Below are positions 5,820 through 35,216 of a DNA stretch of 40,923 nt, in pieces. The first letter of the stretch is position 1, and every line of letters begins with the position of its first letter. Made by a program: the position numbers and the translations under genes. Origin of the DNA: an uncultured Singulisphaera sp. Its GTDB lineage: Bacteria; Planctomycetota; UBA1135; UBA2386. The DNA lies in assembly GCA_964514315.1 (NCBI GenBank), contig CAZEQF010000001.1:1-40923 (forward strand), written 5' to 3'. The notes below the pieces were generated by a model, which was not told the DNA's origin, did no database searches, and was given only the letters and a program-made list of their open reading frames with translations.

Positions 5820-8054
5820 GTGCAGAAGAACTCGATCCTCGCACTGGCGTCGTTGTCCCTCGCGCCTCTGTTCGCCCAGAGCAACGCGGTCCCGGGCATG
5901 GACGCGCAGATCTACAACGTCGTCGACGTCGGCTACTTCGGCCGTCGCGGCGCGGCATACCCGAACGGCGAGGCCGGCTTCGGCGTCGGCCACAGCTACT
6001 GCAACTCGGGCACCGTGGACATCACCTGGGTCGCGAACAGCGGCGGCGTGATGGTCGACACGTATCCGAAGATTGCGTTCATGCTCGCGCGCGAACGCGA
6101 CGGGCGCATGGTGCAGGTCTCCGGCCGCAGCCACGCGAAGCACTCGCGTGCGGTGTTCAACTTCTCCAGCGGCCCGTGCGCGCCGTGCAACACGACCGGC
6201 GGCCAGTTCTTCTTCCGCGGCTGCTCGGACACCTACAGCAGCGGCATCAACAGCAATCGCTTCGACCTCGGCCCGACGACGGAGATCAATCCGTGGCTCG
6301 GCACGTGGAACTCGCAGGGCAGCTACTTCGATCGCGGAGACCCCGCGGTGGGCGGCGCGGCCGCGACTGATCGCGTGCAGTCGCTGACGAGCTCGCAGAC
6401 GGCGACGTTCGATGCAGTGAAGAACCGCGTCGAAGTGCGCGAGAGCGAGATCGCCGGCGGCGGCAACTTCTTCGGGCAGGTGCACCTGATGATCCAGGGC
6501 GAGCCCGTCGCGAACCGCGGCAACAACATCATGAGCCGCCCGTGCACGATCGCCTGGGGCGGTTCGGGCTGGTCTTCGGCGGTGACGGGCTCGTCGCTGA
6601 ACGGCTCGGTGCTCAACCAGTGGCAGGGCGCAACGGTCAACGTCGACGGCAACGGCGCGAATGACGGCCGCTTCGCGGTCGGCGTCAAGGTGACGGGCCC
6701 GGTCAACGGCCTGTGGCACTACGAGTACGCGGTGCACAACCTCGACAACTCGCGCGGCGGCGCGGCCCTTCGCATCCCGGTCGATGCGGGCGCGACGGTC
6801 GCGAACTTCGGCTTCCGCGACATCGATGCGGACTCGCTCAACCAGTGGACGGCCACGCGCACGGGCACGGAGATCGCGTTCAACGCGTCGTCGCTCGACA
6901 ACGCGATCGAGTGGAACACGATCTACAACTTCTGGTTCGACTGCTCGGTCGCGCCGTCGTTCGGCATCGTCAACGTCGATCAGGGCCGCGTCGGCCCCGG
7001 CAACCTCAGCGTCGCCGTCGCGAGCGAAGTGCCGAGCGGCATCCCGTCGGCGCGCGTGCAGTCGGTCGGCACGTCGTGCGGCGCATGCGCGAACTCGTTC
7101 TACGAGCTGTTCGCCAGCGGCGCGGCATTCGACCTGCAGAACCGCTCGGTCGGCATGCAGCTCTCGTCGTCGCAGTACCTCGTGACGATGGACTCGGCCA
7201 CGTGGGTCGCGCCTGCGGGCACGGCGGTCACGCTCGGGGACGACACGGACACGGTGGTCACGCTGCCGTTCACGCTGCCGTATCCGGGTGGAACGACGAC
7301 GTCGTTGCGCGTCTGCTCGAACGGCTTCGTCTCGGTCGCGAGCGGCAACGGCACCGGCTTCACGGCGTCGTCCGGCGCGTTCCTCTCGGGCGTCGCGCGT
7401 TGGGCTGGCCTGTGGCGCGACCTCAATCCGGCGACTGCCGGACAGGTGCTCGTCGACAGCACGCCGAGCCGCGTCGTCGTGAGCTTCGTCAACGTCGCCA
7501 ACTTCGGCGCGGCGACCGCGACGAACACGTTCCAGTACCAGTTCTTCCCGAACGGCCAGGCCAACATCGTGTGGCAGGCGATCGCGCAAGCGGGCGGCGC
7601 GCCGCTCGTCGGCTTCAGCCCCGGCGCTGGCGCGACGGACTCGGGCACGCGCGACCTGTCGAACGCGACGTCGTTCTCGCTGTGCCCTGGCGTGTTCACC
7701 GGCATCGCGCTCGGCGCGAGCGCGCGCCCGATCCTCGGCACGAATGTCGCGCTGACGATCTCGGGCATCCGCCCGACGGCACCGTGGGCATTGCTCGCGA
7801 TGTCGACGCAGCAGGCTGTGCCGGCGATCGACCTGACCTCGGCGGGCATGGAAGGCTGCCAGTCGCACGTGGTCGGCGGGTGGAGCTACCTCTACCTCGC
7901 GCCTGCTGGTTCGGCGGTGACCAACCTGTCGATCCCGACCGACCCGGTGTTCCTGGCGCTGCCCGTGGTGGCGCAGGGATTCGTCTGGGATCCGGGCCTC
8001 ACGACGCTCGGCGCGATCGCGACGAACGCGCAAGTGATGACCCTCGGCCTCTGA
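5820..8054 (+). CDS. Secreted protein of unknown function, 744 aa (GTG start)
   Basis: Frame of track ORF 5583..8054. The upstream in-frame ATG at 5697 abuts the start codon (5698) of the divergent gene, and the stretch up to 5820 does not look protein-like. GTG 5820 gives (M)QKNSILALASLSLAPLFA/QSNA, a canonical signal peptide. The protein is Gly/Ser/Thr/Asn/Ala-rich with no nameable domain, and a strong hairpin follows. Confidence 0.8.
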   Translation: MQKNSILALASLSLAPLFAQSNAVPGMDAQIYNVVDVGYFGRRGAAYPNGEAGFGVGHSYCNSGTVDITWVANSGGVMVDTYPKIAFMLARERDGRMVQVSGRSHAKHSRAVFNFSSGPCAPCNTTGGQFFFRGCSDTYSSGINSNRFDLGPTTEINPWLGTWNSQGSYFDRGDPAVGGAAATDRVQSLTSSQTATFDAVKNRVEVRESEIAGGGNFFGQVHLMIQGEPVANRGNNIMSRPCTIAWGGSGWSSAVTGSSLNGSVLNQWQGATVNVDGNGANDGRFAVGVKVTGPVNGLWHYEYAVHNLDNSRGGAALRIPVDAGATVANFGFRDIDADSLNQWTATRTGTEIAFNASSLDNAIEWNTIYNFWFDCSVAPSFGIVNVDQGRVGPGNLSVAVASEVPSGIPSARVQSVGTSCGACANSFYELFASGAAFDLQNRSVGMQLSSSQYLVTMDSATWVAPAGTAVTLGDDTDTVVTLPFTLPYPGGTTTSLRVCSNGFVSVASGNGTGFTASSGAFLSGVARWAGLWRDLNPATAGQVLVDSTPSRVVVSFVNVANFGAATATNTFQYQFFPNGQANIVWQAIAQAGGAPLVGFSPGAGATDSGTRDLSNATSFSLCPGVFTGIALGASARPILGTNVALTISGIRPTAPWALLAMSTQQAVPAIDLTSAGMEGCQSHVVGGWSYLYLAPAGSAVTNLSIPTDPVFLALPVVAQGFVWDPGLTTLGAIATNAQVMTLGL

Positions 8055-8292: not shown

Positions 8293-10437
8293 ATGCTGCG
8301 CCATCATCCCGCGTCCGTTCTCGCGTTCTTCCTCTCGTCGTTCGCGTTCGCGCAAGAAGGCTCCGTCGACTCGGCGTCGCGTCCGCTTGCGGACCTTGCG
8401 CACGGAACGCGCATCGTCGCGTCGCAAGACGGCGCCCAGCTCGACTGGGCCGCGTTCGTCGCGCGCCTCGCGAAGCTCGATGCCGTCTTCCTCGGCGAGA
8501 CGCATCTCGACGACATGACGCACCGCGTCGAACTCGAGACGCTCGAAGGGCTCATTCGCGAGACGAAGGGCAAGGTCGTGTTGTCGATGGAGATGTTCGA
8601 GCGCGATGTGCAGCCTGCGCTCGACGCCTACTGCAAGGGCGAGATCGACGAGGCGACGTTCCTCTCGCGCTCGAGGCCGTGGGGCAACTACATGGAGGAC
8701 TATCGGCCGCTGGTCGAGACGGCGAAGAAGCACGGCGTGCCGGTCGTCGCCGCGAACTTCCCCGCGATGCTGCGCCGCAAGCTCGGCATGGGCGGCAAGG
8801 ACGCGGTCGCAAAGCTCTCGGAGCAGGAGCGCGCGCTGATGCCGGAGACGATCCTCCCGGCCAGCGAGGCCTACTGGCAGCGCGTCGACCGCGCGACGCG
8901 CGGCCACATGGGCGGCGGCGGCCAGTCCGCCGAAGAACGCCTCTACGACGGCCAGAACCTCTGGGACAACGCGATGGGCGACGCGGTCAGCAAGGCGCTC
9001 GCCGCGCACAAGGGCAGTGTCGTGCTGCACGTCGCCGGCGGGTTCCACACGGCGTATCGCGATGGCACCGTCGCGCAGTTCGCCGCGCGCCAGAAGGACG
9101 CGAAGTTCGCGACCGTCGCGATCGCCGCGTCGGGCGCGTTGCACAAGGCGCAGCCGAAGCGCGACGCAGACGAAGCGGATTATCTCGTCTATGCGCTGGC
9201 GACGGCGCGCAGCGAGTTCGAGGGCTCGTTCGCAGTCACGATGCAGTCCGAGCTGCGGTATCGCCTCCACGTTCCCGAGAGCGCGTTCGCGCACCGCGCG
9301 CCGTTGCTCGTGTGGGTTCCTGGAGCGGACGAAGATCCCGACGATGCGATCGCATTCTGGCGCAATGCAGTCGGTGACGCCGTCTGCGTCGCGGTGGTGG
9401 AGCATGCGTTCCCGAGCGCGCGCGCGGACCTCGGCAAGGGCGGTGCGTGGAACACGGGCGACGGCTTCCGTGCCGACTACGGCGCGGTGCAGGGCGGCAT
9501 CGAGCAGATCGTCGAATACCTGACGCGGCGCATGCCGACCGATGCCTCGCGCACGATGGTCGCGGGCTCCGGCGCCGGCGGCGCGGTCGCGATGTGGACT
9601 GCGCTGTACTCGAGTTGGTTCCAGGGCTCGCTGCTCGCGATCGAGCCGCACGACCTCACGCGCTTCTCGATGGAAGCGCTGCCGGACAAGGCGCCGACCA
9701 TGCAACGACTCTGGATCGCGGCCGGCGACGCGAACAAGCAGAAGCTCGACAAGGCTGAGTCCGACTACCGCAGCGTCGGCGCGAAGGTCGAACGTGTCGC
9801 TCCGTTCGCGGACGGCGCGGCGCTCGCAGCGTTCGTGCGCAAGGGCCTCGGCGTCGGCGACAAGCCTGCGGTGGCCGGCGCCGACAGCAAGCGCTGGGTC
9901 GCGCTCGACGGGGACCTGCCGCGCGCGCGGCAGTGGGCGGAGATCTTCGCCGCGAAGCTGCGCATGCAGGGCCTCGACGCGTCGATCGTCGCCGCTGCGG
10001 ACGTTCCGAAGGATGCGCCCGCTGCCTCGGTGCAGTGGATGGAAGTGTCTGAACGTGGCTTCGCGCCGTCGCGATTCGCCGATGGCAGCGGCATCCCGCT
10101 CGCGGGTGGTTCGTTCGGCGGCACCACGGTGCTCGTGCTCCCTGCCGGCGCAAGCGACGCGGACTTCGCGGCGTGGAAGGCGATCGAGGACAAGAAGGCG
10201 ATCAAGCGCCGCAGCATGTTCGCCAACCTCGCGATCGCGCGCGCCGACAAGGAGCCGACGCTGCCGCAGGTCGTCGATGCGATGCGGCAGAAGGGGCGCT
10301 CCCGACTGCTGATCTGCCCGGCTGTGTTTTGCGCCTCGCCCGAAGCCATGCAGTCCATGCACAGCCAGGTGGAGGGGATCCTCTCAGGATTGGATGTGCA
10401 CTGGTTGCCAGGCTTGGGCGCCCAGCTAGTGCGCTGA
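8293..10437 (+). CDS. Exported multi-domain protein, 714 aa: ChaN-like (haem-binding/Tiki superfamily) domain, then an alpha/beta-hydrolase-like region, then an unassigned C-terminal domain
   Basis: Track ORF 8080..10437 trimmed to ATG 8293 (MLRHHPASVLAFFLSSFAFA/QEG signal peptide). The N-terminal ~250 aa carry VFLGETHLDDMTH, VVLSMEMFERDVQ and HGVPVVAAN...VLHVAGGFH, typical of the ChaN/PF04187 family. The middle has LLVWVPG...TMVAGSGAGGAVAMW, esterase-like but with a non-canonical nucleophile elbow. The tail ...RLLICPAVFCASPEAMQSM...LDVHWLPGLG only loosely recalls CbiX-type folds. Confidence 0.85.
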   Translation: MLRHHPASVLAFFLSSFAFAQEGSVDSASRPLADLAHGTRIVASQDGAQLDWAAFVARLAKLDAVFLGETHLDDMTHRVELETLEGLIRETKGKVVLSMEMFERDVQPALDAYCKGEIDEATFLSRSRPWGNYMEDYRPLVETAKKHGVPVVAANFPAMLRRKLGMGGKDAVAKLSEQERALMPETILPASEAYWQRVDRATRGHMGGGGQSAEERLYDGQNLWDNAMGDAVSKALAAHKGSVVLHVAGGFHTAYRDGTVAQFAARQKDAKFATVAIAASGALHKAQPKRDADEADYLVYALATARSEFEGSFAVTMQSELRYRLHVPESAFAHRAPLLVWVPGADEDPDDAIAFWRNAVGDAVCVAVVEHAFPSARADLGKGGAWNTGDGFRADYGAVQGGIEQIVEYLTRRMPTDASRTMVAGSGAGGAVAMWTALYSSWFQGSLLAIEPHDLTRFSMEALPDKAPTMQRLWIAAGDANKQKLDKAESDYRSVGAKVERVAPFADGAALAAFVRKGLGVGDKPAVAGADSKRWVALDGDLPRARQWAEIFAAKLRMQGLDASIVAAADVPKDAPAASVQWMEVSERGFAPSRFADGSGIPLAGGSFGGTTVLVLPAGASDADFAAWKAIEDKKAIKRRSMFANLAIARADKEPTLPQVVDAMRQKGRSRLLICPAVFCASPEAMQSMHSQVEGILSGLDVHWLPGLGAQLVR

Positions 10438-10641
10438 AGACCCGACGGCCGACGCTCTTCGCCCGGCCGCAACGGACAGAAATACGGCTGCATCCAGAAA
10501 ACGGTCACGGGCCGTTGCTGCGGCGCATTTCGTGTCCGAACGGCGGACAGCAATGCCCTGCGCGATCCGGCACGGTTGTTGTCTTGTCGTAATCTTCAAG
10601 CGACTCGTCCCCGGAACGGCCTCTCAAGCGGACTACCCCCG

Positions 10642-12389
10642 ATGCTTCGTATCCCCATTTTCCTTGCGGCTATCTCCCTGGCCTCGACCCTGGCGGCGCA
10701 GTCGCTGACCGGGCGGATCGTCGACGCCAACAACGTGCCTGTTGTCGGTGCGACGGTCTATTGCAACCTGTCGTCGGTGCGACGGTCTATTGCAACCTGT
10801 CTGCGACGATCCAGGCCAACACCGACGCGCTCGGCAACTTCACGATCCCGACGAGCACTGGCATCCGCAACCAGCGCTACGACGTTGCGATCAACCCGCG
10901 CAGTCCGATCATCGCGCCGTTGGAATATGGCCGCGTGAACGTGAGCGGTGTGACGAATATCGGCACGGTGCAACTCGCGGTCGGCGCGCAGATCACTGCG
11001 AGGCTCGTCGGCCCCACGGGTGCGCCGCTCGTCGGCGCGAACCTGTCCGCCTACGACCCCGCGGGCGTCAAGCTCTACACGCCGAACGACGGCACGGACG
11101 TCAACGGCAATGCACAGATCGTCGTGCCCTACGGCGCGATGACCTTCCGCGCGATGCCGCCGGTTGGCACGACGTTGGTTCCCTACCAGGAGAACATCGT
11201 GATGAGCGGGGCGCGGGCCTACGGCACGATTGCGTTGCGCCAGGGCTACGCGCTCACCGGTTCGATCGTGCGCGCGGGCGCGACGCCGCTGCCGATCGCC
11301 AACTGCGAGATCGTTGCGACCAACATGCTGACGGGCGAAGAGGTGTTCCTCGCCACCAAGCTCTCGAACACGCTCGGCGCGTTCAACATCCTGTTGCCGT
11401 TCGGCCTCTACCAGCTCGATTTGATGCCCGCGAACGGCTCGCCCTATGCGGCGCGCCAAGTCTTCGGCATCCCGGTCATCGACTACAGCTACAGCCTTGG
11501 GCTCGTGACCATGAAGCCTGGCGTTGCGCTGACGGGCACCGTGCGCGGTCCGACTGGCCTCGCGGTCGCGGGCGCTGACATCGACGTGCTCGACGCGCTC
11601 GGCCACAAGATGTTCACGCCGAACGACAACACGACGGCAACGGGCACCTTCTCGGTGATCGTGCCGACGGGCGGCACCTACTCCGTCAACGTCGATCCGC
11701 TCGTCGCCAACAACCTCATCGGCGCCAAGTCGGCGACGGTGCCGGTGAACGCGGCGACGAACATCGGCATCCTCACGGTGGCCGCTGGCGTGCCGGCGAC
11801 GATCACGGTGACGGACGCTTTCGGCAGCCCGGTTGCCGGCGCGCAAGCCAGCGTTCGCGACGTGGCGACGGGTGTCGAATACACGATCCCTGGCAACTCT
11901 GCCGGCGCGGACGGTGTGATCCGCGCAGTGGTGCCGCAGGGCAACCTCGACATCCGCGTGAAGGCGCCGCAGGGCAGCGCGAGCGCGCCGGTGGTCCTTC
12001 CTCCGTCGCTCGTCGCTGGGCCGCTCGTCACGACGGCGCAGCTGCCGCTCAAGACGATGTGCACGAACACCCGCGGCCTCGGCATCCTGACCGTGGCCAA
12101 CGGCGGCGACATCTTCCTGGAGTGGACGGTCACCAACCAGACGGCCCTGCTGCAGAACTTCACGGTCGAAGCGGTCGTGACGCACGCGTCGGGCGCCGAG
12201 ACGGCGTGGGTCCCGCAGATCCCGCTCGAGATGCCCGGTCCGATCGGGATCACGCTGATGTTCTGGATCGCGACGCCGCCCGTGGCTGCGACCGAACTCG
12301 GCTTCCTGCAGAAGTTCATGGTGCGCCTGCGCAACGCGGCGACCGGCGAACTGTTCGACGAGTCCTACGTCTACTACGTGCCGCAGTGA
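10642..12389 (+). pseudogene. Frameshifted gene for a secreted protein with repeated carboxypeptidase-regulatory-like domains (572 aa if one repeat copy is removed)
   Basis: ATG 10642 gives MLRIPIFLAAISLASTLAAQSLTGRIVDANNVPVVGATVYCNLS, and this frame then stops at 10936-10938. The rest of the protein (track ORF 10761..12389) continues in the +2 frame. The break coincides exactly with the 29-bp duplication at 10744-10801. The restored sequence is collinear with the intact paralogue 12551..14257. Confidence 0.85.
10744..10801 (+). repeat. Perfect tandem duplication, 2 x 29 bp
   Basis: 10744-10772 and 10773-10801 both read gtcggtgcgacggtctattgcaacctgtc. The flanking bases break the periodicity on both sides. 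Confidence 0.97.
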
Positions 12390-12550: not shown

Positions 12551-14257
12551 ATGTTCCATCGCGCCTCTCTCGCCACCGCAGCAGTTCTCGTCCTCTCGGT
12601 CGGCGTCGCTGCCCAATCCCTGACCGGGACCCTGGTCGACACCCTCGGGGCGCCGGTCGCCGGAGCGTCGGTCGTGCTCAGCGGCACTGCGTTCTCTGCA
12701 GTGACGGACATCGCGGGGCAGTTCACGATCGTCGGCCTGCTGAACCGTTCCTACACGGTGCAGATCGACCCGCTCGCCAACCCGCTCGCTCCGGTCGAGT
12801 TCAGCCGCACGGTGCTCGGCGCGACCAACATCGGCAACTACGTGCTGCAGCCGGGCGCGATCGTCAGCGCGACGTTCACGGATCCGCTGGGCGTCCCGCT
12901 CTCGCAGGTGAACTGCAACGTCTATCTGCCGGACGGCACCAAGCTCTACACGCCGCGAGACATCACGAATGCGGCCGGCTTCGTCTCGTTCAACGTGCCG
13001 CAGACCGCGGTGACGCTCGAGGCGCTGCCGCCGACGGGCTCGACGCTCTATCCGTGGCGTTCGAACGTGACACCGAGCGGCCCGCTCGCGCTCGGCACGA
13101 TCGCGTTCCAGCAGGGCTACACGATCACGGGTTCGGTGGCGCGCGCTGGAGCCGTTCCGTTGCCGATCGCGAACTGCGAGCTGATCGTCACGGACCAGTT
13201 CACCGGGCTCGACATGGTGCTCGTCAACAAGCGCACGAACAGCCTCGGGGCGTTCAGCGTTGCGTTGCCGAACGGGCTCTACCGATTCGATTTCGTGCCT
13301 CCGGCAGGCAGTCCGCATGCAGCGCGACAGCTCTTCGGAGTGCCGGTCGTCAGCCAATCGGTGGGCATGGGCATCGTGGGGCTGCCGCAGGCCGCTGCGA
13401 TCAGCGGCACGGTGTTGGGCCCGAACGGCCCAGTCCTCGGGGCGGACATCGACCTCTACGACGCGCTCGGCCACAAGCTGTTCACGCCGAACGACAACAC
13501 GACCCTGACGGGCGCGTTCTCGGTGATGGCCCCGCTCGGCGGCACCTATCAGGTGCGCGTCGATCCGCCCGTCGTGAGCGGGCTCGTCGGCTTCCGCAGC
13601 GCGCCCGTGCCGGTCACCGCGTTGACCAGCATCGGCCCGATCCAGCTTGCGACGGGCATCCCCGTCGTGCTCGACCTGTTCGACAGCCTCGGCGCGCCGC
13701 TCGAAGGCGCGGTGATGAACGTCGTCGATCCGGCGACGCAGCAAGAACTCGTCGTGCCGGGCAACAGCACGGACGCGACTGGCCGCATGACGGCAGTGGT
13801 CCCGTTCGGCGTGTTCGACGTGACGTTGAGCCCGCGCCAAGGCAGCCGCGCAGCGGCCGTGCCGGTTGCGGGCGTTCCGTTCGTCGCGCCGATCGTCGCG
13901 GCGCTGCCGTTGCCGGACCGGCCGGTGTCGACGTCGCTGGAAGGGCTTTCGATCCTCGGCGTGCCGAACGGCGGCGAGATCTTCGTCGACTGGGCGTTCG
14001 AGAACCGCGTGCCCGCGATCCTGCCGACGACCGTCGAGGCCGTCGTGGCGCTCGCGTCGGGCGCCGAGGTTCCTTGGATCCCGCCGCTGCCGCTCGATCT
14101 TCCGCCGTCGATCGGGTTCGGGTTGCAGCTGTGGCTGCCGACGCCGCCGCTGCCGGCTGCGGAACTCGGCTTCCTGCAGAAGTTCACGATCCGGCTGCGC
14201 GATGCCGCGACGCAGCAGGTGCTCGACTCGTCCTACGTCTACTACCAGCCGCGCTGA
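12551..14257 (+). CDS. Secreted protein with repeated carboxypeptidase-regulatory-like domains plus an unassigned C-terminal module, 568 aa
   Basis: Track ORF 12521..14257 trimmed to ATG 12551 (MFHRASLATAAVLVLSVGVAA/QSLTG signal peptide). It repeats units of the type LTGTLVDTLGAPVAGASVVL, ISGTVLGPNGPVLGADIDLYD and so on. The C-terminus ...AELGFLQKFTIRLRDAATQQVLDSSYVYYQPR is shared with the upstream paralogue. Confidence 0.88.
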   Translation: MFHRASLATAAVLVLSVGVAAQSLTGTLVDTLGAPVAGASVVLSGTAFSAVTDIAGQFTIVGLLNRSYTVQIDPLANPLAPVEFSRTVLGATNIGNYVLQPGAIVSATFTDPLGVPLSQVNCNVYLPDGTKLYTPRDITNAAGFVSFNVPQTAVTLEALPPTGSTLYPWRSNVTPSGPLALGTIAFQQGYTITGSVARAGAVPLPIANCELIVTDQFTGLDMVLVNKRTNSLGAFSVALPNGLYRFDFVPPAGSPHAARQLFGVPVVSQSVGMGIVGLPQAAAISGTVLGPNGPVLGADIDLYDALGHKLFTPNDNTTLTGAFSVMAPLGGTYQVRVDPPVVSGLVGFRSAPVPVTALTSIGPIQLATGIPVVLDLFDSLGAPLEGAVMNVVDPATQQELVVPGNSTDATGRMTAVVPFGVFDVTLSPRQGSRAAAVPVAGVPFVAPIVAALPLPDRPVSTSLEGLSILGVPNGGEIFVDWAFENRVPAILPTTVEAVVALASGAEVPWIPPLPLDLPPSIGFGLQLWLPTPPLPAAELGFLQKFTIRLRDAATQQVLDSSYVYYQPR

Positions 14258-14269
14258 GCGCGGCGGTCG

Positions 14270-15772
14270 TCACTTCGAAGGCTTCGAGTCCGAAGCCTCG
14301 ATCTTGCCCGGCGCGCGAACGCCAGAGCCCTGGCGTTTGCTGATCGCGTCGCCGAGGTCTTCGCGCGCGCGCTCGGCCCATTGCTGGAGCCGTTCGACGA
14401 TCTCTGGATGCTTCGCGCTGACGTCGCGCGTCTCGCCGACGTCGTTCTGCAGGTCGTAGAGCGCGAGTGGCGCCTTCTGCTTTGCATACGGCGCCGGCGC
14501 GCCGCCTTTGCCGCCCGGGTTGCCTGCGAGCGTCGCATACGAATGCGGCAGCACGAGCTTCCAGCGCTGGTCGCGAACGGCCTGAAGCTGCCCGGAGTAG
14601 TAGCAATAGAAGGCCTCGTGCGGGCTCTGCGCGTCCGGCTCGCCGCGCATCAACGCATCGAGGTCGCGACCGTCGATCGTGTGGTCCGGCAACGTCGCGC
14701 CGATGCGCGCCGCGAACGTCGGCAGCAGGTCGAACGTCGCCGCGAGGCGGTCGCACGTGGAGCCTGCTGGGATGCGGCCGGGCCAGCGCATGATGCACGG
14801 CACGCGGTGGCCGCCTTCCCATGACGTGCCCTTGCCTTCGCGCAGCGGGCCCGCGGAGCCGGCGTGTTCGCCATACGAGAGCCACGGTCCGTTGTCGCTC
14901 GTGAACACGACGAGCGTGTTGTTGGCGATCCCGCCTTGGTCGAGGGCTTCGAGGATGCGGCGCACGCTTTCGTCGATCTCCGCGACAACGTCGGCGTAGA
15001 GGCCTCGGCCGGTCTTCCCCTCGAACTCCGAGGACGCGTACAACGGCACGTGCACCATCGTGTGCGGCACGTAGAGGAAGAACGACTTCGCCATGTTGCG
15101 GCGGATGAAGTCGACGGCGCGGTCCGTGTAGCGGCGTGTGAGTTCCTTCTGGTCCTCGCCCGTGATCTCGGCGTCGACGACCTTGTCGCCGTCGAACAGC
15201 GGCAGCGGCGGGTAGCCAGCCTTCCGCTTCCTGACGTCCTCCGGCATGCTCGCGAGCGCGGGATGCAGCGGCCACATGTCGTTGCTGTAGGGCAGTCCGA
15301 ACCACTCGTCGAAGCCGTGCTTCGTCGGCAGGAACGCAGGGTGGTGTCCGAGGTGCCATTTGCCGAAGCACGCGGTGGCGTAGCCCTTCTGCTTGCAGAT
15401 CTCGGCAAGCGTGGTCTCGGAGGCCGCGATCCCTTCCTTCGCGTCCGGCCCGTAGGCGCCGTGCACGGAGACGCGCGCATGGTAGGAGCCCGTGAGCAGC
15501 GCTGCGCGCGAAGCGGAGCACACTGCGGAACTCGCATGGAAGTCCGTGAAGCGCATGCCTTCCTTCGCGAGCCGCTCGAGGCTCGGAGTCGGCGTCTTGG
15601 AGCCGAACGGGCCGATGTCCGCGTAGCCCAGGTCGTCGACGAAGATCACGACGAGGTTCGGCGGACGCGCAGCGCGCGGCTGGGCAGACGCCCGCGATGG
15701 CGCGTCGTGGCGTTGCGCTGTCGCGAAGGACGCTGCGGACAAGAGGGCGACCGATGCGAGCAGTCGGAGCAT
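14270..15772 (-). CDS. Formylglycine-dependent sulfatase (arylsulfatase A family), exported, 500 aa
   Basis: Full track ORF with an ATG start and signal peptide MLRLLASVALLSAASFATA/Q. It carries PNLVVIFVDDLGYADIG, the CSASRAALLTG (C-x-A-x-R) formylglycine motif, GKWHLG, and DNGPW...GKGTSWEGGHRVP. Confidence 0.95.
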   Translation of the reverse strand: MLRLLASVALLSAASFATAQRHDAPSRASAQPRAARPPNLVVIFVDDLGYADIGPFGSKTPTPSLERLAKEGMRFTDFHASSAVCSASRAALLTGSYHARVSVHGAYGPDAKEGIAASETTLAEICKQKGYATACFGKWHLGHHPAFLPTKHGFDEWFGLPYSNDMWPLHPALASMPEDVRKRKAGYPPLPLFDGDKVVDAEITGEDQKELTRRYTDRAVDFIRRNMAKSFFLYVPHTMVHVPLYASSEFEGKTGRGLYADVVAEIDESVRRILEALDQGGIANNTLVVFTSDNGPWLSYGEHAGSAGPLREGKGTSWEGGHRVPCIMRWPGRIPAGSTCDRLAATFDLLPTFAARIGATLPDHTIDGRDLDALMRGEPDAQSPHEAFYCYYSGQLQAVRDQRWKLVLPHSYATLAGNPGGKGGAPAPYAKQKAPLALYDLQNDVGETRDVSAKHPEIVERLQQWAERAREDLGDAISKRQGSGVRAPGKIEASDSKPSK

Positions 15773-29283: not shown

Positions 29284-30612
29284 ATGCATCGGTCCATCGT
29301 GCTCGCGCTCGCCGCGAGCGCTCTTCCCTCGTTCGTCTGCGCGCAGGCTTTGCCCTTCGTTCGCACGCAGCCGCAAGTCCGCGGGTTCGCCAATGACCAC
29401 ACGGGCGCGCCACTGCTGAGCCCGGATCGCGTCGTCGTTCGTTACGGCAAGGCAGTCAGCAAGGACGCGCTCGAATCGCTGGCGCGAGAGATCGGATTGC
29501 CGATCGTCGATCGCGGCCTCAACGGCGAGTTCGTCGTGTTCCGCGCGGACGCCGAGTCCGTCGACAGTTGGGTCGAGTGGTTTGCCGCGCAACCCGGTGT
29601 CGAATACGCCGAGCGCGATCCGATCGCTTCGACGACTGCCGCTCCGACGGACCCTCTGTGGGCTCCGTTCCAGTGGAACTTCTACAACTACGGCGCCCTC
29701 AGCAATGGCCGTGCGACCAACTTCGGCATCCAAGCCGAAGGCGCGTGGACCGCAGGCGCAACGGGCTCAGGCGTCGTCGTCGCAGTGATCGACACCGGCA
29801 TCGCCTACGAGAACTTCGGCGCATTCACGCAGGCGCCGGATCTCGCGGGTCGCACGTTCGTGTCGCCGTATGACGCGGTGACCGGCGACGGCCACGCCAA
29901 CGACGAGAACGGCCACGGCACGCACTGCGCGGGCACGATCGCGCAGTCGACCAACAACGGCATCGGCTGCGCCGGCGTCGCCTACAACTGCACGCTGATG
30001 CCGATCCGTGCGCTCGACGCGGCGGGCAGCGGCTCGCTGACGTGGATCGCGAACGGCGTCACGTGGGCCAAGGACCGCGGCGCCAAGGTGGCCAGCATGA
30101 GCCTCGGTGGCGGCGCTGGTTCGACGGCGTTGCAGAGCGCGATCACGGCGGCGGTCAACGCCGGCGTGACGGTCTGTGCCGCGACGGGCAACACGAACCG
30201 CCAGGGCCTGCAGTATCCCGCGGCCTACTCGCCGACGATCGCGGTCGGCGCGACGCGCTTCGACGGCAACCGTCCGCGCTACTCGACCTACGGCACGGGC
30301 ATCGACGTGAGCGCGCCGGGCGGCGACACCGGTGTCGACCAGAACGCCGACGGCTACGCGGACGGCATCCTGCAGCAGACGTTCGCGACGGGCGCGCCGA
30401 CGACGTTCGGCTACTACTTCTTCCAGGGCACGTCGATGGCGACGCCGCATGTCGCGGCCGTCGCAGCGCTCGTTCGCTCCGTGCGGCCGACGTACACGGC
30501 GGCGCAGGTGCGCAGCGCGATCGAGACGAGCTGCAAGGATCGTGGCACGACCGGCTACGACACGACCTACGGCTTCGGCATCGTCAACGCCGCGCTCGCG
30601 ATCACTCGCTGA
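29284..30612 (+). CDS. Secreted subtilisin-like serine protease (peptidase S8) with an N-terminal propeptide, 442 aa
   Basis: Full track ORF with signal peptide MHRSIVLALAASALPSFVCA/Q. The catalytic triad contexts are VVVAVIDTGI (Asp), NGHGTHCAGTIA (His) and GTSMATPHVAAVAAL (Ser). Confidence 0.95.
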   Translation: MHRSIVLALAASALPSFVCAQALPFVRTQPQVRGFANDHTGAPLLSPDRVVVRYGKAVSKDALESLAREIGLPIVDRGLNGEFVVFRADAESVDSWVEWFAAQPGVEYAERDPIASTTAAPTDPLWAPFQWNFYNYGALSNGRATNFGIQAEGAWTAGATGSGVVVAVIDTGIAYENFGAFTQAPDLAGRTFVSPYDAVTGDGHANDENGHGTHCAGTIAQSTNNGIGCAGVAYNCTLMPIRALDAAGSGSLTWIANGVTWAKDRGAKVASMSLGGGAGSTALQSAITAAVNAGVTVCAATGNTNRQGLQYPAAYSPTIAVGATRFDGNRPRYSTYGTGIDVSAPGGDTGVDQNADGYADGILQQTFATGAPTTFGYYFFQGTSMATPHVAAVAALVRSVRPTYTAAQVRSAIETSCKDRGTTGYDTTYGFGIVNAALAITR

Positions 30613-30619
30613 GCGCATT

Positions 30620-30646
30620 CGCGCCGCGTGGCTTCAGCGCGGCGCG
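30620..30646. terminator. Stem-loop between convergent genes, overlapping the 3' end of the minus-strand gene
   Basis: 9-bp perfect stem cgcgccgcg (30620-30628) / cgcggcgcg (30638-30646) with a 9-nt loop, starting 8 nt after stop 30612. Confidence 0.4.
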
Positions 30647-32577
30647 ACTTCGAGGTCGACGGTGCGTTCCGCGCTGCCGTCGGCCTCGACTTCGACGCGG
30701 CTGCGCGTCTGGTCCGAGTTCTCCAAGAACGGATCGTCGGCGTCGCGCCGGCCCGCGAGCAACGCGTAGCGTCCGCGCGGCAGCCCTTCGAAGCGGAACT
30801 TGCCCTCTGCGTCGACTCGGCGTTCTGCGACGAAGTCCGACGCCACGTCCTTTGCGTCGATCGGCGTGATTTGCACGACGATTCGGCGGTCGACGGCGCC
30901 AGCTGCGAAGCAACGGCCGCGGACGGTCACGCCCTTTGTGAGCACGAGGTCGCCGACGTTCTCTTCGATTCCGCCGTGGGTGCGCACGCCGCGGTGGACG
31001 CGCGGCGCGAACGTGTCGCGTGCAACGGAGAGTTGGTGCGCGCCGTCGTGCGCGCGTTCGAGCACGAACGTCCCGTCTGCCTTGCTGTGTGCGAACGGCT
31101 GCGGGCCGACGCTCGCACGCGCGGAGCGCACGGCTGCGCCGAGGTCGCCGTCGAGCGCGTTCTCGGGCTGGAGTCGCACGAGCGCGCCGGCGACGGGGCG
31201 GCCCCGTTCGTCGACGATGCGCCCGAGCACGCGGCTGCCCTTGGTCAGCACGATCGGGACTTCGCGAAGTTCGTCCAGGTCGACGCGGAACGTGCTCGAC
31301 GTGAGTCGCGCAAAGCCCGGCGCTGACGCCTCGAGGTTCCATTCGCCGGGCTCCAATCCTTCGAGGTCCAACGCCGCGGCGCCGGCTTCTGTCCGTGTCG
31401 ACGTCTTCGGGCCGACGCGTCGCATGCGCGCGCTCGGAGTCTTGTCCGCGCTGCGCGCCAAGGCCGAGAATCCCGCCACCGCATTGCCGTCGGCATCGCG
31501 CGCGAGCACGCGAAGCCGCGAGAGTCGCGACAACCGCAGCGTGATGGGCTTGCTCGCGTCGGCTGCGAGCGTCTCGCTGGCCGTGCCAAAGCCAGGCGCC
31601 GAAGCGTTCAGCTCCGCTTCGCCGAGGGCCACGCCTTCGATGCGGAACGAACCGTCCGCATTCGCGTGCGCGCCGACGACGCCGGTGTCGCGTGCCGTCG
31701 AGGGGATTGCTCGCACGAAAGCGCCGTCGCATGCGCGGCCGTCGCGGTCGAGCACGAAGCCTGCGATCGTCCGGCCTGGTTGCAGCACGAAGTCGAGCAC
31801 GTTGTCCTCGTCGCGCTGGATGTGCTGCTGCGGCAGTTCGTGCCGCGCGTGGCCTGCTGCAGTGGCCGCGATGTTGCAGATGCCGATGGGCGCGTTGTCG
31901 ATCGCATACATGCCCTGCGCATCGGTCTTCGTCGACAGCGGCGGGAGTTCGAGCATCCGCGTGGACGGCAGTTGGATCGAGACCTCTGCGTCGGCGAGCG
32001 GCGCCTCGGTCAATGCGTCGCGCACGGCGCCTCGCAGCGTCCTGCCACGGCCCAGCGCGATGTCGCCGACGTTCGTCCATTCGGCGACGCTCGCAGTGCA
32101 CGAGGCGTATGCCGGTGCGAACGCTTGCGCGCGAACGTGTGCTTCGACGCGCTCGTCTGCGCACTCATCGGGCAGCGCAACGGCGAACGCTCCGTCTTGG
32201 CCTGAGGTCGCGGTGCCCAACGCCGCGTGGCGTTGCCCGCGATTGCGCATGGACTGCAAGGAGAATGGGTCCGTCGACGAACGCGCGAACACAGCGACTG
32301 TCGCGCCTGCGATCGGCCCGCCTGTCCCGTCGACGACACGTCCGCGCAGGCCTTGGCCGCTCTGCATTCCATCGACGCGCGTTCCGTCGGCGTTGGCGTC
32401 AGCGCGGACGATGGCCGATTGGGCGCCACTGCCGGTTGCAACTGCTGGCGCCTCACGGCTCGCTGCCTCCGGGAGAGCGATTTGGCCGTTCGGCGCGGGA
32501 TCGCCTTGCAGCGCCATCAGCAGCGCTACGGCAGCCGCGACGGCGCAGAGGAGCGCGAGCAGGATCCGCTTGGGCAT
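30634..32577 (-). CDS. N-terminally anchored protein with repeated carboxypeptidase-regulatory-like domains, 647 aa
   Basis: Track ORF 30634..32859 trimmed to ATG 32577 (MPKRILLALLCAVAAAVALLMAL, signal/anchor). It repeats LRGRVVDGTGGPIAGATVAVF, IAGFVLDRDGRACDGAFVRA, VLGRIVDERGRPVAGALVRL, ...DAEGKFRFEGLPRGRYAL. Confidence 0.85.
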   Translation of the reverse strand: MPKRILLALLCAVAAAVALLMALQGDPAPNGQIALPEAASREAPAVATGSGAQSAIVRADANADGTRVDGMQSGQGLRGRVVDGTGGPIAGATVAVFARSSTDPFSLQSMRNRGQRHAALGTATSGQDGAFAVALPDECADERVEAHVRAQAFAPAYASCTASVAEWTNVGDIALGRGRTLRGAVRDALTEAPLADAEVSIQLPSTRMLELPPLSTKTDAQGMYAIDNAPIGICNIAATAAGHARHELPQQHIQRDEDNVLDFVLQPGRTIAGFVLDRDGRACDGAFVRAIPSTARDTGVVGAHANADGSFRIEGVALGEAELNASAPGFGTASETLAADASKPITLRLSRLSRLRVLARDADGNAVAGFSALARSADKTPSARMRRVGPKTSTRTEAGAAALDLEGLEPGEWNLEASAPGFARLTSSTFRVDLDELREVPIVLTKGSRVLGRIVDERGRPVAGALVRLQPENALDGDLGAAVRSARASVGPQPFAHSKADGTFVLERAHDGAHQLSVARDTFAPRVHRGVRTHGGIEENVGDLVLTKGVTVRGRCFAAGAVDRRIVVQITPIDAKDVASDFVAERRVDAEGKFRFEGLPRGRYALLAGRRDADDPFLENSDQTRSRVEVEADGSAERTVDLEVAPR

Positions 32578-32713
32578 CGCCGCATGGTGCGCTCCGCGCG
32601 TGTCGAGGTCCACATCCCGCCGAGCAGGACCGCGGCCCTTGGGTTGAGCTGCCTGCAGGCGCCCCGCACCAGTGCGGCTGTCGCGGCACGTTGCCTGTGG
32701 GCACGATGCCTGC

Positions 32714-33967
32714 ATGGATCCGAAGCCCCAGAATGCGTTCGACCCCATCGCCGCGATGGCGCGCGCCCGCCACGAGTTCGGCGAACACGGCGGCGTGAAC
32801 CTCTCGATCGAAGCGAGCACGACGTTCACCGTGCTCGCCGCCAACATGATGCCGCGCATCTTCCGTGGCGAAGGCGGGCCGTTCTCGAACGCAGGCGGTT
32901 CGACGGGCGGTTGCTACCTGTACGGGCGGCACTTCAATCCGACGGTGTTCACGTTCGGCCGCATGCTGGCGGCGATGGAAGGCGTGGAGGCCGGCTACGC
33001 GACCAGCTCCGGGATCGCCGCGATCGCGGCGACGTTGCTGCAGATCTGCACGAAGGACCAGCGCATCGTCGCTGGCTCGGCCCTCTACGGCGGGACGTTC
33101 GCGTTGTTGAAGGACTACCTGCCGTCGCGCACGGGCATCGAGACGACGTTCGTCGACACCAACGACCTCGATTCGGTGCGGGATGCGTTGAAGAAGACCA
33201 GAGCGCGCGTGCTCTACGTCGAGTCGCTGTCGAACCCGACGCTGCAGGTCGCCGACCTGCCCTCGCTCGCGCGCGTCGCGCACGAGGAAGGCGCGCGCCT
33301 CGTCGTCGACAACACGTTCGCGCCGCTGATCCTCACGCCTGCGCGCCATGGCGCCGACGTCGTGATCCACAGCGTGACCAAGTTCTTGAGCGGCGCGTCC
33401 GACGTCATTGCTGGCGCGGTGTGCGCGTCTCGCGACTTCATCGGCTCGATGATGGACCTGCACACGGGCTCATTGATGCTGCTCGGGCCGACGATGGACC
33501 CCAAGATCGCGCACGAGCTCACGCTGCGCCTTCCGCACCTCGGGGTCCGCATGCAGGAGCACGGCCGTCGCGCGCTTGCGTATGCAGAACGGCTTGCGGC
33601 CCTCGGCGCGGCGGTTCGCTATCCGGGTCTCGCGAACGATCCGCAACGCATGCTGCTGGAGCGGCTCGCCAATCCTGGCTTCGGCGCCGGCGGCTTGCTG
33701 ACAATCGATCTCGGTTCGATCGCGCGCGCGAACCGCTTCATGGAGATCCTGCAGAACGAGCACACGTTCGGCTACATGGCCGTGAGCCTCGGCTATTTCG
33801 ACACGCTGATGTCGTGCTCAGGCAGCTCGACGTCGAGCGAGCTGAGCGAGGCCGAGCAGCGCGCTGCCGGCATCGCGCCAGGGCTCGTGCGCATGAGCGT
33901 CGGCATCACCGGAACGCTCGACGACCGGTTGCGTCAGCTCGAAGACGCGTTCGTGCGGTCGCGGTGA
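32714..33967 (+). CDS. Cys/Met-metabolism PLP-dependent enzyme (methionine gamma-lyase / cystathionine gamma-synthase family), 417 aa
   Basis: Track ORF 32672..33967 trimmed to ATG 32714. It carries YGRHFNPTV, SSGIAAI, VVDNTFA, and HSVTKFLSG with the PLP lysine. The C-terminal LVRMSVGI is family-typical. Confidence 0.92.
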   Translation: MDPKPQNAFDPIAAMARARHEFGEHGGVNLSIEASTTFTVLAANMMPRIFRGEGGPFSNAGGSTGGCYLYGRHFNPTVFTFGRMLAAMEGVEAGYATSSGIAAIAATLLQICTKDQRIVAGSALYGGTFALLKDYLPSRTGIETTFVDTNDLDSVRDALKKTRARVLYVESLSNPTLQVADLPSLARVAHEEGARLVVDNTFAPLILTPARHGADVVIHSVTKFLSGASDVIAGAVCASRDFIGSMMDLHTGSLMLLGPTMDPKIAHELTLRLPHLGVRMQEHGRRALAYAERLAALGAAVRYPGLANDPQRMLLERLANPGFGAGGLLTIDLGSIARANRFMEILQNEHTFGYMAVSLGYFDTLMSCSGSSTSSELSEAEQRAAGIAPGLVRMSVGITGTLDDRLRQLEDAFVRSR

Positions 33968-34031: not shown

Positions 34032-35216
34032 TCAGAACGTGAAGCCCATCTGGATGACGCCGCCGTAGCTGTTGTCGTCGATGTAGGTGCCGGCGACGTC
34101 GAGGTGGAACACGTCGAACGGGCTGATGCCGAGACCGGCGCTGTAGGCGTCGTCGAGCGTGTTCTCGAAGTCGGTCTGGTAGCCGCCGCGCAGTTGCAGC
34201 CAGCTGAACAGGTCGATCTCGGCGCCGAGGTGCGCGAGCTGCACGTCGTCCTTGTCGAGCAACGGCGAGTCTTCGAAGCGCTCCGCGCTGACGAGGTCGA
34301 CGTCGGCAGCCAGCGTGAGGATGCCGGTGGTCCAGGATGCGCCGAGCGCCGCGGCGGGGTTCACGTCGTAGAGGAAGCTCTCGCCGAGCGTGTTCACGGT
34401 GCGGTAGGTCTTGTCGATCATGTTGCGCACCGTTGCGCCGAACGTCAGGCCGAGGCCCGGTTCCCATGCCGCGCCCAGGTCGAAGTTGAACTCCTGGTCG
34501 TCGTCGCGGAACTGGTCGTCGTCGAAGTTGTCCTGGTCGAAGTTGTTCGCCGTCACCGCGTAGTTGTAGCTGTCGACGCGTTGGATCTTGGGCGTCGCGC
34601 CGACCGACAACGTCGTTCCGGCCAGGTCGAACGAAGTGGCGAGCGACACGCCGACTTCGGTGATCGCGATGCCGACGACGCGCGCTTCGGAGTTGAGCGT
34701 CGGCAGCGTCACGCTGCCGGCCGTCAGGCCGCGGATCGCGGCGACGTCCGCCGGGTCGACGTCCACGAACGACTGCAGGTCGGCGTAGCTGCGCGCGTGG
34801 ATCGACCAACCGAGGTCGCGCGAGGGGGCGCCGACGACGAAGCCCACGCCGAGCGTTCCCGTGATCTGACGGCCGTCGAGGGACTCGAGCTGGTCGGCGA
34901 GGGAGTTGATGTCGTCGGTCGTCGCCGTTCCCGCGGCCTCGATGCGGTCGAAGTCGTCGACGAAGTTGTCGATGTCGTCGATGAGCCCGTCCTTGTCGAA
35001 CGCCGTCGCGCCGACGGTCGGCAGGATGAAGCCGAACGTGTCGGACTCACGGTGCCGCGTCAGCAGCGCGGGATTGGCCCAGCCGGCCGCGAGGTAGTGC
35101 GAGGACGCGACTCCCGTCCCGCCCATCGCGCTGTTGCGCGCTTCGAAGTATTGGGCGTGCACGACGCTGGCGAGGAGCAGGGACGCTGCGGGAAGAGCAA
35201 TGGAGCGTGCGATCAT
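34032..35216 (-). CDS. Outer-membrane beta-barrel protein (TraF_2-like family by N-terminal motif), 394 aa
   Basis: Full track ORF with an ATG start and signal peptide MIARSIALPAASLLLASVVHA/Q. The motif EARNSAMGGTGVASSHYLAAGWANPALL is present. Alternating amphipathic strands end in the aromatic C-terminus ...GGVIQMGFTF, typical of OMPs. Confidence 0.87.
   Translation of the reverse strand: MIARSIALPAASLLLASVVHAQYFEARNSAMGGTGVASSHYLAAGWANPALLTRHRESDTFGFILPTVGATAFDKDGLIDDIDNFVDDFDRIEAAGTATTDDINSLADQLESLDGRQITGTLGVGFVVGAPSRDLGWSIHARSYADLQSFVDVDPADVAAIRGLTAGSVTLPTLNSEARVVGIAITEVGVSLATSFDLAGTTLSVGATPKIQRVDSYNYAVTANNFDQDNFDDDQFRDDDQEFNFDLGAAWEPGLGLTFGATVRNMIDKTYRTVNTLGESFLYDVNPAAALGASWTTGILTLAADVDLVSAERFEDSPLLDKDDVQLAHLGAEIDLFSWLQLRGGYQTDFENTLDDAYSAGLGISPFDVFHLDVAGTYIDDNSYGGVIQMGFTF

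Follow-up and report, generated by a model that had tools for sequence, protein, structure and literature searches.

A 29-bp tandem duplication frameshifts one of two paralogous genes for putatively secreted proteins in a freshwater planctomycete contig

Short tandem duplications that arise by slippage between flanking microhomologies are a classical class of spontaneous frameshift mutation in bacteria. Here we describe a perfect 29-bp tandem duplication in a 40,923-bp stretch of DNA from an uncultured Singulisphaera sp. (contig CAZEQF010000001.1; the whole stretch is called the window below), where it splits a gene, here gene 1, that is followed by an intact tandem paralogue, gene 2. We consider it probable, at a moderate level of confidence, that this is a recent, strain-specific loss-of-function duplication of gene 1. 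Like known tandem duplications made by replication slippage, the one in the window combines an exact head-to-tail copy with a direct repeat at the unit's spacing in unduplicated relatives and with a frameshift; it differs from them in that its upstream hexamer is imperfect (CCTGTT) and in that the event is known from an assembly alone.

Two groups of switchable loci invite comparison. In the pneumococcal capsule genes cap3A, cap8E and tts (serotypes 3, 8 and 37), spontaneous tandem duplications are described as turning the capsule off and their precise excision as turning it on again (Waite et al., 2001, 2003, as summarised in PMC4243769). Gene 1 is like these genes in carrying a single tandem duplication inside the open reading frame (ORF) of a putatively exported product, which it would abolish. 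However, many independent duplications of differing length per gene, with reversion measured in culture, are reported for the pneumococcus, whereas gene 1 offers one event in one contig and no recurrence among relatives. In the contingency loci of Neisseria and Haemophilus, which are built on tetranucleotide or homopolymer tracts, copy number likewise sets the frame of a secreted or surface gene, but gene 1 has no short-unit tract, and its 29-bp unit is present twice with no copy-number polymorphism among relatives. A comparison of another kind is with assembly errors: assembler choice and low coverage create spurious frameshift pseudogenes, and of the assemblers MEGAHIT yields the largest number of assembler-specific ones (PMC11017572). 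The window resembles these cases in its isolated frameshift within an undecayed gene, and also in the strain-variable site beside it and in a length that assemblers often use as k. Documented assembler errors are mostly small indels, however, and an untrimmed k-overlap inside a contig is not known as a routine artefact and would leave the flanking microhomology unexplained.

Anatomy of the duplication and its frame effect

The 29-mers at 10744-10772 and 10773-10801 are identical (GTCGGTGCGACGGTCTATTGCAACCTGTC), with a mismatch at either outer border, and the novel junction between the two copies reads ...GCAACCTGTC/GTCGGTGCG... (the slash marks the junction). Tandem Repeats Finder reported an array at 10738-10801 (period 29, 2.2 copies, 97% match), in which the period-29 pattern reaches 6 bp further upstream (CCTGTT versus CCTGTC) with a single mismatch, T at 10743 versus C at 10772. 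The pair is the sole exact tandem duplicate of period 15-400 in the window; one other exact tandem repeat, of 12 bp, lies at 7258.

Because the length of the duplicate is not a multiple of three, it causes a frameshift and a premature stop. The frame from the ATG at 10642 ends at a TGA (10936-10938) after 98 codons, the downstream 540 codons of gene 1 lie in another frame that runs to 12389, and deletion of one copy in silico gives an ORF of 572 amino acids (aa). When the repaired protein was searched against the window by tblastn, frame 1 accounted for residues 1-45 (10642-10776) and frame 3 for residues 33-572 (10767-12386). Third-codon-position GC content (GC3) also changes frame at the duplicate, from 0.83 in the first frame before it to ~0.9 in the second frame after it. 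The duplicated segment corresponds to codons 35-44, inside the first domain of the gene 1 product. The features of the split gene are as follows:

10642..10938, + strand: 5' fragment of gene 1, with a signal-peptide-like N-terminus, 44 native residues and an out-of-frame tail to the TGA (translation, tblastn)
10738..10743, + strand: upstream microhomology copy, CCTGTT in the window and CCTGTC in the two closest relatives, L003 and L004
10744..10772, + strand: copy 1 of the 29-bp unit, ending in CCTGTC
10773..10801, + strand: copy 2 of the 29-bp unit, the same as copy 1
10802..12389, + strand: rest of gene 1, read in the shifted frame up to and including the native stop, with no further lesions (by tblastn, one frame covers residues 33-572 at 100%)
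10761..12389, + strand: 542-aa ORF with a TTG start within copy 1 and no signal peptide, an exact match to the public protein P0056 (NCBI)

A preliminary description of the window, made from its letters alone, had reported much of this anatomy. The perfect 29-bp tandem duplication was reproduced as identical copies and by Tandem Repeats Finder, the stop at 10936-10938 and the 572-codon ORF after removal of one copy were recovered by translation, and the undamaged downstream coding signature is seen in GC3 (~0.9) and in the ratio of non-synonymous to synonymous divergence (omega, dN/dS; 0.21). Its "zero divergence" between copies is correct for the 29 + 29 bp, but not for the 6 + 29 + 29 bp structure when that is judged against the closest relatives, where one difference is found, at 10743. 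The two genes were also rightly called tandem paralogues: the repaired gene 1 product and gene 2 are 48% identical over their full length.

Single-copy relatives and the age of the lesion

Relatives of the locus come from lakes and rivers, as Planctomycetota metagenome-assembled genomes (MAGs) or metagenome contigs (Lake Erken, the Columbia River and GCA_006365055.1 among them). A scan of genome contigs with alignment A1 yielded 15 loci and a metagenome scan 10 loci; the genome-contig scan with the single repaired protein as query gave no loci. Those fetched were L001/L020, L002, L003, L004, L005, L006, L007/L021, L008, L022, L032 and L033, two of them present twice, in two collections (L001/L020 and L007/L021). 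The DNA of the duplication site was read in 11 records, and L022 begins downstream of the site.

Every fetched orthologous locus reads in one frame (tblastn), and wherever the DNA of the site was read (L001-L008, L032, L033) it holds one copy of the 29-bp unit. This includes the two closest relatives, L003 and L004, which are ~98-99% identical to the window in DNA. At the protein level, orthologues P0001-P0008 are all 572 aa long at 70-96% identity to the repaired protein, and the 90% cluster of the repaired protein contains eight more full-length 572-aa members and one member that an in-frame deletion of 2 aa shortens to 570 aa; 572-aa orthologues at 70-99% identity are P0001-P0008, P0058, P0060-64 and P0068. 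Among ~20 orthologues (70-99% identity) and the loci read, we found no other duplication, copy-number change or frameshift in gene 1. Because all relatives with a readable site have one copy, the duplicate is derived and, in public data, unique to the window contig.

The window is 98.4% identical to L003 over 14.3 kb, with two indels only, the 29-bp duplicate and a 1-bp intergenic indel. Gene 1 is the only split gene among 14 syntenic genes; the other 13 of L033 map end-to-end in one frame by tblastn, and since all 13 are intact, errors are not widespread in the contig. This gene-by-gene tblastn against L033 replaced a search for further frameshifts by GC3 along the window, which was too coarse to interpret by itself.

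Three apparent second disrupted orthologues among the relatives had other causes. P0009, a 354-aa protein on L030, was rejected as a second disrupted orthologue, as a scaffold gap of 100 Ns interrupts it (L030 3871-3970; ENA ERZ4204489 NODE_2201), a gap that serves as a warning for pseudogene counts in the gene 1 family. P0065 and P0066 (144 aa) were likewise rejected as disrupted orthologues and look like contig-end fragments; P0065 begins at contig position 52, and for P0066 a place at a contig end is presumed from the length of its contig. An over-long match in L005 was discarded as an anomaly, the match having extended into the paralogue. The orthologue on L004 (ENA ERZ4211883, coverage 1.5x), P0067, is 570 aa long through an apparent in-frame 6-bp deletion (NIGTVQL to NTVQL) on this contig of very low coverage. 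Lastly, the out-of-frame N-terminal fragment found no match among 5.8 billion proteins, in a search that looked insensitive, as even the shared N-terminus went undetected.

Against L003, repaired gene 1 shows 9.5 synonymous and 5.5 non-synonymous differences (omega 0.21), which is indistinguishable from gene 2 (omega 0.17) and from the neighbouring sulfatase gene (omega 0.13). Within the gene 1 family omega is 0.09-0.25 out to a synonymous divergence (dS) of ~0.7, indicating purifying selection. Because gene 1 carries no other decay, the duplication event would be very young, and by these comparisons the lesion should be either very recent or not real.

Origin of the duplicate

In the unduplicated relatives L003 and L004 the site reads GTG CCTGTC GTCGGTGCGACGGTCTATTGCAA CCTGTC TGCGACG, in which 6 bp are repeated directly and without mismatch at a distance of 29 bp. 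The two CCTGTC hexamers, with 23 nt between them, sit exactly at the edges of the unit that is duplicated in the window, and a 6-bp match at 29-bp spacing is met at 0.13% of window positions. The upstream hexamer of more distant relatives is CCGGTC, CCCGTC or CCTGTG, and since these relatives are without the perfect pair, the substrate for slippage is lineage-specific. A pair of this kind is a textbook substrate for slippage in replication or for duplication through microhomology. This flanking microhomology and the strain-variable base at the duplicate's left edge had both been overlooked in the preliminary description, and they are the most informative features for telling a mutation from an artefact.

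The head-to-tail copy would most likely have arisen when replication slipped, or strands were otherwise misaligned through microhomology, from one CCTGTC hexamer to the other, 29 bp away. The extra 29 bp would then shift the frame, such that translation from the native ATG would stop after 98 residues and the remaining 540 codons would be left without a start or a signal peptide, knocking out gene 1. With 160 bp between the two genes, a polar effect of the nonsense codon on gene 2 is unlikely. Precise loss of one copy would restore the frame. Because the copies are identical and adjacent, the allele should be revertible in principle, although revertibility is a property of this class of mutation and not evidence for a selected switch. 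A hairpin-promoted form of slippage was rejected, as the DNA fold of the one-copy region was no different from that of shuffled controls (z -0.9 and -0.6).

A number of observations weigh against a recent slippage knock-out. Within 10566-10957 (~390 bp) the window differs from L003 at a single base, the T at 10743, where L003 and L004 have C, and this base abuts the left edge of the duplicate. The upstream hexamer of the window itself is thus imperfect (CCTGTT, 5 of 6). A slip in a CCTGTC/CCTGTC ancestor predicts C at 10743, and T is observed; were the ancestor CCTGTT, a slip should rather have left T in the middle copy, in place of the observed order T-C-C. Because of this order, a real mutation needs either an extra substitution (a later C>T) or extension from a terminal mismatch, and we estimate the coincidence of T 10743 under a real slip at ~3-5% (divergence ~0.5-0.9% per site, six bases). 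A fixed knock-out is also mildly unexpected, because gene 1 is conserved under purifying selection. Moreover, the duplicate is known from one assembly only: the proteins of the window (the 542-aa ORF, gene 2 and the sulfatase) were found in NCBI only, each on a single contig of 40,923 bp, which the window covers in full, and the search gave no independent assembly of the same strain.

The strain-variable base is what lends weight to an assembly or consensus artefact, by which the organism would have one copy and an intact gene 1, and a 29-base overlap would have been joined untrimmed at a bubble formed by a strain single-nucleotide polymorphism (SNP). The duplicate starts one base after the only strain-variable site nearby; in a de Bruijn graph the shared segment begins at SNP+1 and an allele branch ends k bases on, so that an untrimmed join would give exactly the observed T-C-C. 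Assemblers commonly use k = 29, which is among the defaults (21, 29, 39 and others) of MEGAHIT, a widely used metagenome assembler that may or may not have built this contig. The related MAGs come from freshwater metagenome projects, and gene 1 has no other damage and is intact in every relative. Because assemblers are documented to make frameshift pseudogenes (PMC11017572), an artefact stays a serious alternative. However, it gives no reason for the 5-6 bp of flanking microhomology, for which the chance at 29-bp spacing is ~0.1-0.3%, and a standard de Bruijn assembler should not make such a path, since the reads would hold no k-mers spanning the junction and an unusual untrimmed join would be needed. 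The literature searched held nothing specific on k-length internal duplicates made by assemblers. Nor does the DNA upstream of the putative bubble carry a counterpart of the duplicate, and the 40.9 kb of this one contig examined contain no other k-length duplicate, no Ns and no other coding indel against relatives. Weighing the two coincidences, that of the microhomology under an artefact and that of T 10743 under a real slip, favours a real mutation by roughly an order of magnitude before priors. We therefore regard an artefact as possible but doubtful, and we infer, with fair though far from full confidence, that the duplicate is a real mutation of one kind or another, present in the organism's DNA.

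Close to the duplicate, L031 (Logan SRR21524776, a k=31 assembly of a 97%-identical strain) begins at window position 10806, 5 bp past it. A mixture of one-copy and two-copy alleles was rejected as the cause of this break, as at k=31 such a mixture would break the contig where the unit starts, whereas the break is at 10806. Simpler and more likely is a SNP in the third position of the Ala45 codon, and the break shows that a short stretch near 10806 is strain-variable in natural samples.

The preliminary description had left three options open, of which recent inactivation and assembly artefact survive, and the third, a slipped-strand on/off switch, finds no support. Such a selected, reversible switch would involve frequent duplication and precise excision, giving ON and OFF cells for a secreted or surface protein, and parts of the locus would suit it: a perfect adjacent duplicate is intrinsically unstable, its precise excision restores the frame, and the target is a putatively secreted multi-domain protein beside an intact paralogue, of a type that is a typical target of phase variation. 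The absence of decay is compatible with a gene 1 that is regularly switched back on, and the reversible pneumococcal duplications outlined above provide a precedent. Yet there are two copies of the 29-bp unit only, and Tandem Repeats Finder detected no multi-copy short-unit tract in or upstream of gene 1. The comparison of orthologous loci in related genomes, which the preliminary description had proposed as a check, returned a uniform single copy in every locus recovered, with no duplication, copy-number change or frameshift in ~20 orthologues or the 11 site-read records. The 5.8 billion proteins yielded no second two-copy allele, in the out-of-frame-peptide search that looked insensitive. 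The CCTGTC pair that would drive recurrence is confined to the closest lineage, and the paralogue gene 2 has no equivalent repeat. We judge a switch improbable; if it did exist, it would be an environmental, non-pathogen counterpart of pneumococcal capsule duplication switching, in a freshwater planctomycete whose intact paralogue gives cover.

Still less credible, and in our estimation very improbable, is that gene 1 remains functional despite the lesion, via ribosomal frameshifting (10773-10935), reinitiation at GTGA 10935-10938, or initiation at TTG 10761. The arrangement of the stop lends this some colour, as the premature TGA overlaps a GTG (Val89) in the downstream frame to form GTGA (10935-10938), and overlaps of the GTGA type are often linked with termination-reinitiation; the 542-aa ORF, for its part, opens at TTG 10761. 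But a product from an internal start would be without the signal peptide, from GTG 10935 also without most of domain 1, and would be cytoplasmic. Because all relatives are without the frameshift, there are no grounds for proposing a slippery site or a conserved frameshift element, and the DNA fold of the region is no different from that of shuffled controls.

The gene 1 product, its neighbourhood and implications

The signal-peptide-like N-terminus of the gene 1 product, together with its ~five CarboxypepD_reg-like beta-sandwich domains, suggests a secreted or cell-envelope multi-domain protein. CarboxypepD_reg (PF13620) scored above its gathering threshold (32.3 bits) in both repaired gene 1 (67.3 bits) and gene 2 (65.1 bits). 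An AlphaFold2 model of the repaired product, made with 20 orthologues in the alignment, is all-beta with a mean predicted local distance difference test score (pLDDT) of 78.8. In this model a disordered or helical leader (residues 1-20) is followed by ~five beta-sandwich domains, and a C-terminal beta domain of ~110 residues is of lower confidence and matched no family. Foldseek returned generic multi-sandwich proteins (pilins, the B. anthracis TIE protein, complement MG domains) at TM-scores of 0.1-0.2, and the family profile, run against PDB sequences, had no match beyond a marginal one to a SusC N-terminal domain. The gene 1 product is thus like CarboxypepD_reg proteins and strings of CnaB/Ig-like sandwiches in domain type (67 bits versus 32.3; ~five sandwiches), and with CnaB/Ig-like proteins such as pilins and B. 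anthracis TIE it shares the domain type only, the TM-scores being low. The term "surface protein" given to it earlier is plausible on the N-terminus and the beta-sandwich domains, but unproven.

The surroundings are those of an ordinary chromosome, with a ChaN-like gene, gene 1, gene 2 and a sulfatase gene, and beyond the sulfatase hypothetical genes, an asparaginase, a short-chain dehydrogenase, a subtilase, another CarboxypepD_reg protein and others. The features nearest to gene 1 are:

8293..10437, + strand: ChaN/Tiki-superfamily haem-binding-like protein, 714 aa, upstream and syntenic (Pfam PF04187, E 1.6e-54; synteny in L001, L003, L030, L033)
10567..10641, + strand: conserved region upstream of gene 1, probably a promoter or 5' untranslated region (5'UTR), intact (near-invariant among the window, L003, L004, L002 and L001)
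12551..14257, + strand: gene 2, the intact tandem paralogue, 568 aa (public protein P0069)
14270..15772, - strand: sulfatase, 500 aa, downstream and syntenic (Pfam PF00884, E 6e-60; synteny)

The order ChaN-like gene, gene 1, gene 2 and, on the opposite strand, sulfatase is kept in L001, L003, L030 and L033, to ~85% DNA identity. Downstream of the ChaN-like gene the DNA is hypervariable against L003 (68 of 197 mismatches fall in 10105-10605). The 75 bp before the ATG of gene 1 (10567-10641) are conserved and intact in the window, and near-invariant even in relatives of only 85% identity; they are probably a conserved promoter or 5'UTR beside a hotspot of recombination or divergence (10438-10641 region). 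A Peripla_BP_2 binding protein lies ~6 kb downstream, and this neighbour and the gene order hint, without proof, that the paralogue pair may be connected with haem or iron acquisition. A third, larger CarboxypepD_reg-rich ORF (30634-32859, - strand, 741 aa; PF13620, E 5.5e-50) lies 18 kb away and adjoins a subtilase (29284-30612) and a TraF_2-like outer-membrane protein (34032-35216).

As a type, the feature is ordinary: a tandem duplication, flanked by microhomology, that puts one of two paralogous genes for putatively secreted proteins out of frame. Whether it is real or an artefact, neither outcome alters what is known of phase variation or of the gene 1 protein family. We recommend that gene 1 be annotated as a frameshifted member of a conserved 572-aa family, in place of its present entry, P0056, a 542-aa protein that lacks the signal peptide. 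As an artefact, the duplicate would illustrate that a k-sized duplicate at a strain SNP can yield a false pseudogene in a MAG. As a real mutation, it would be a clean and datable case of a loss-of-function allele that arose through microhomology and segregates in a wild population of planctomycetes, and it could be used as a strain marker.

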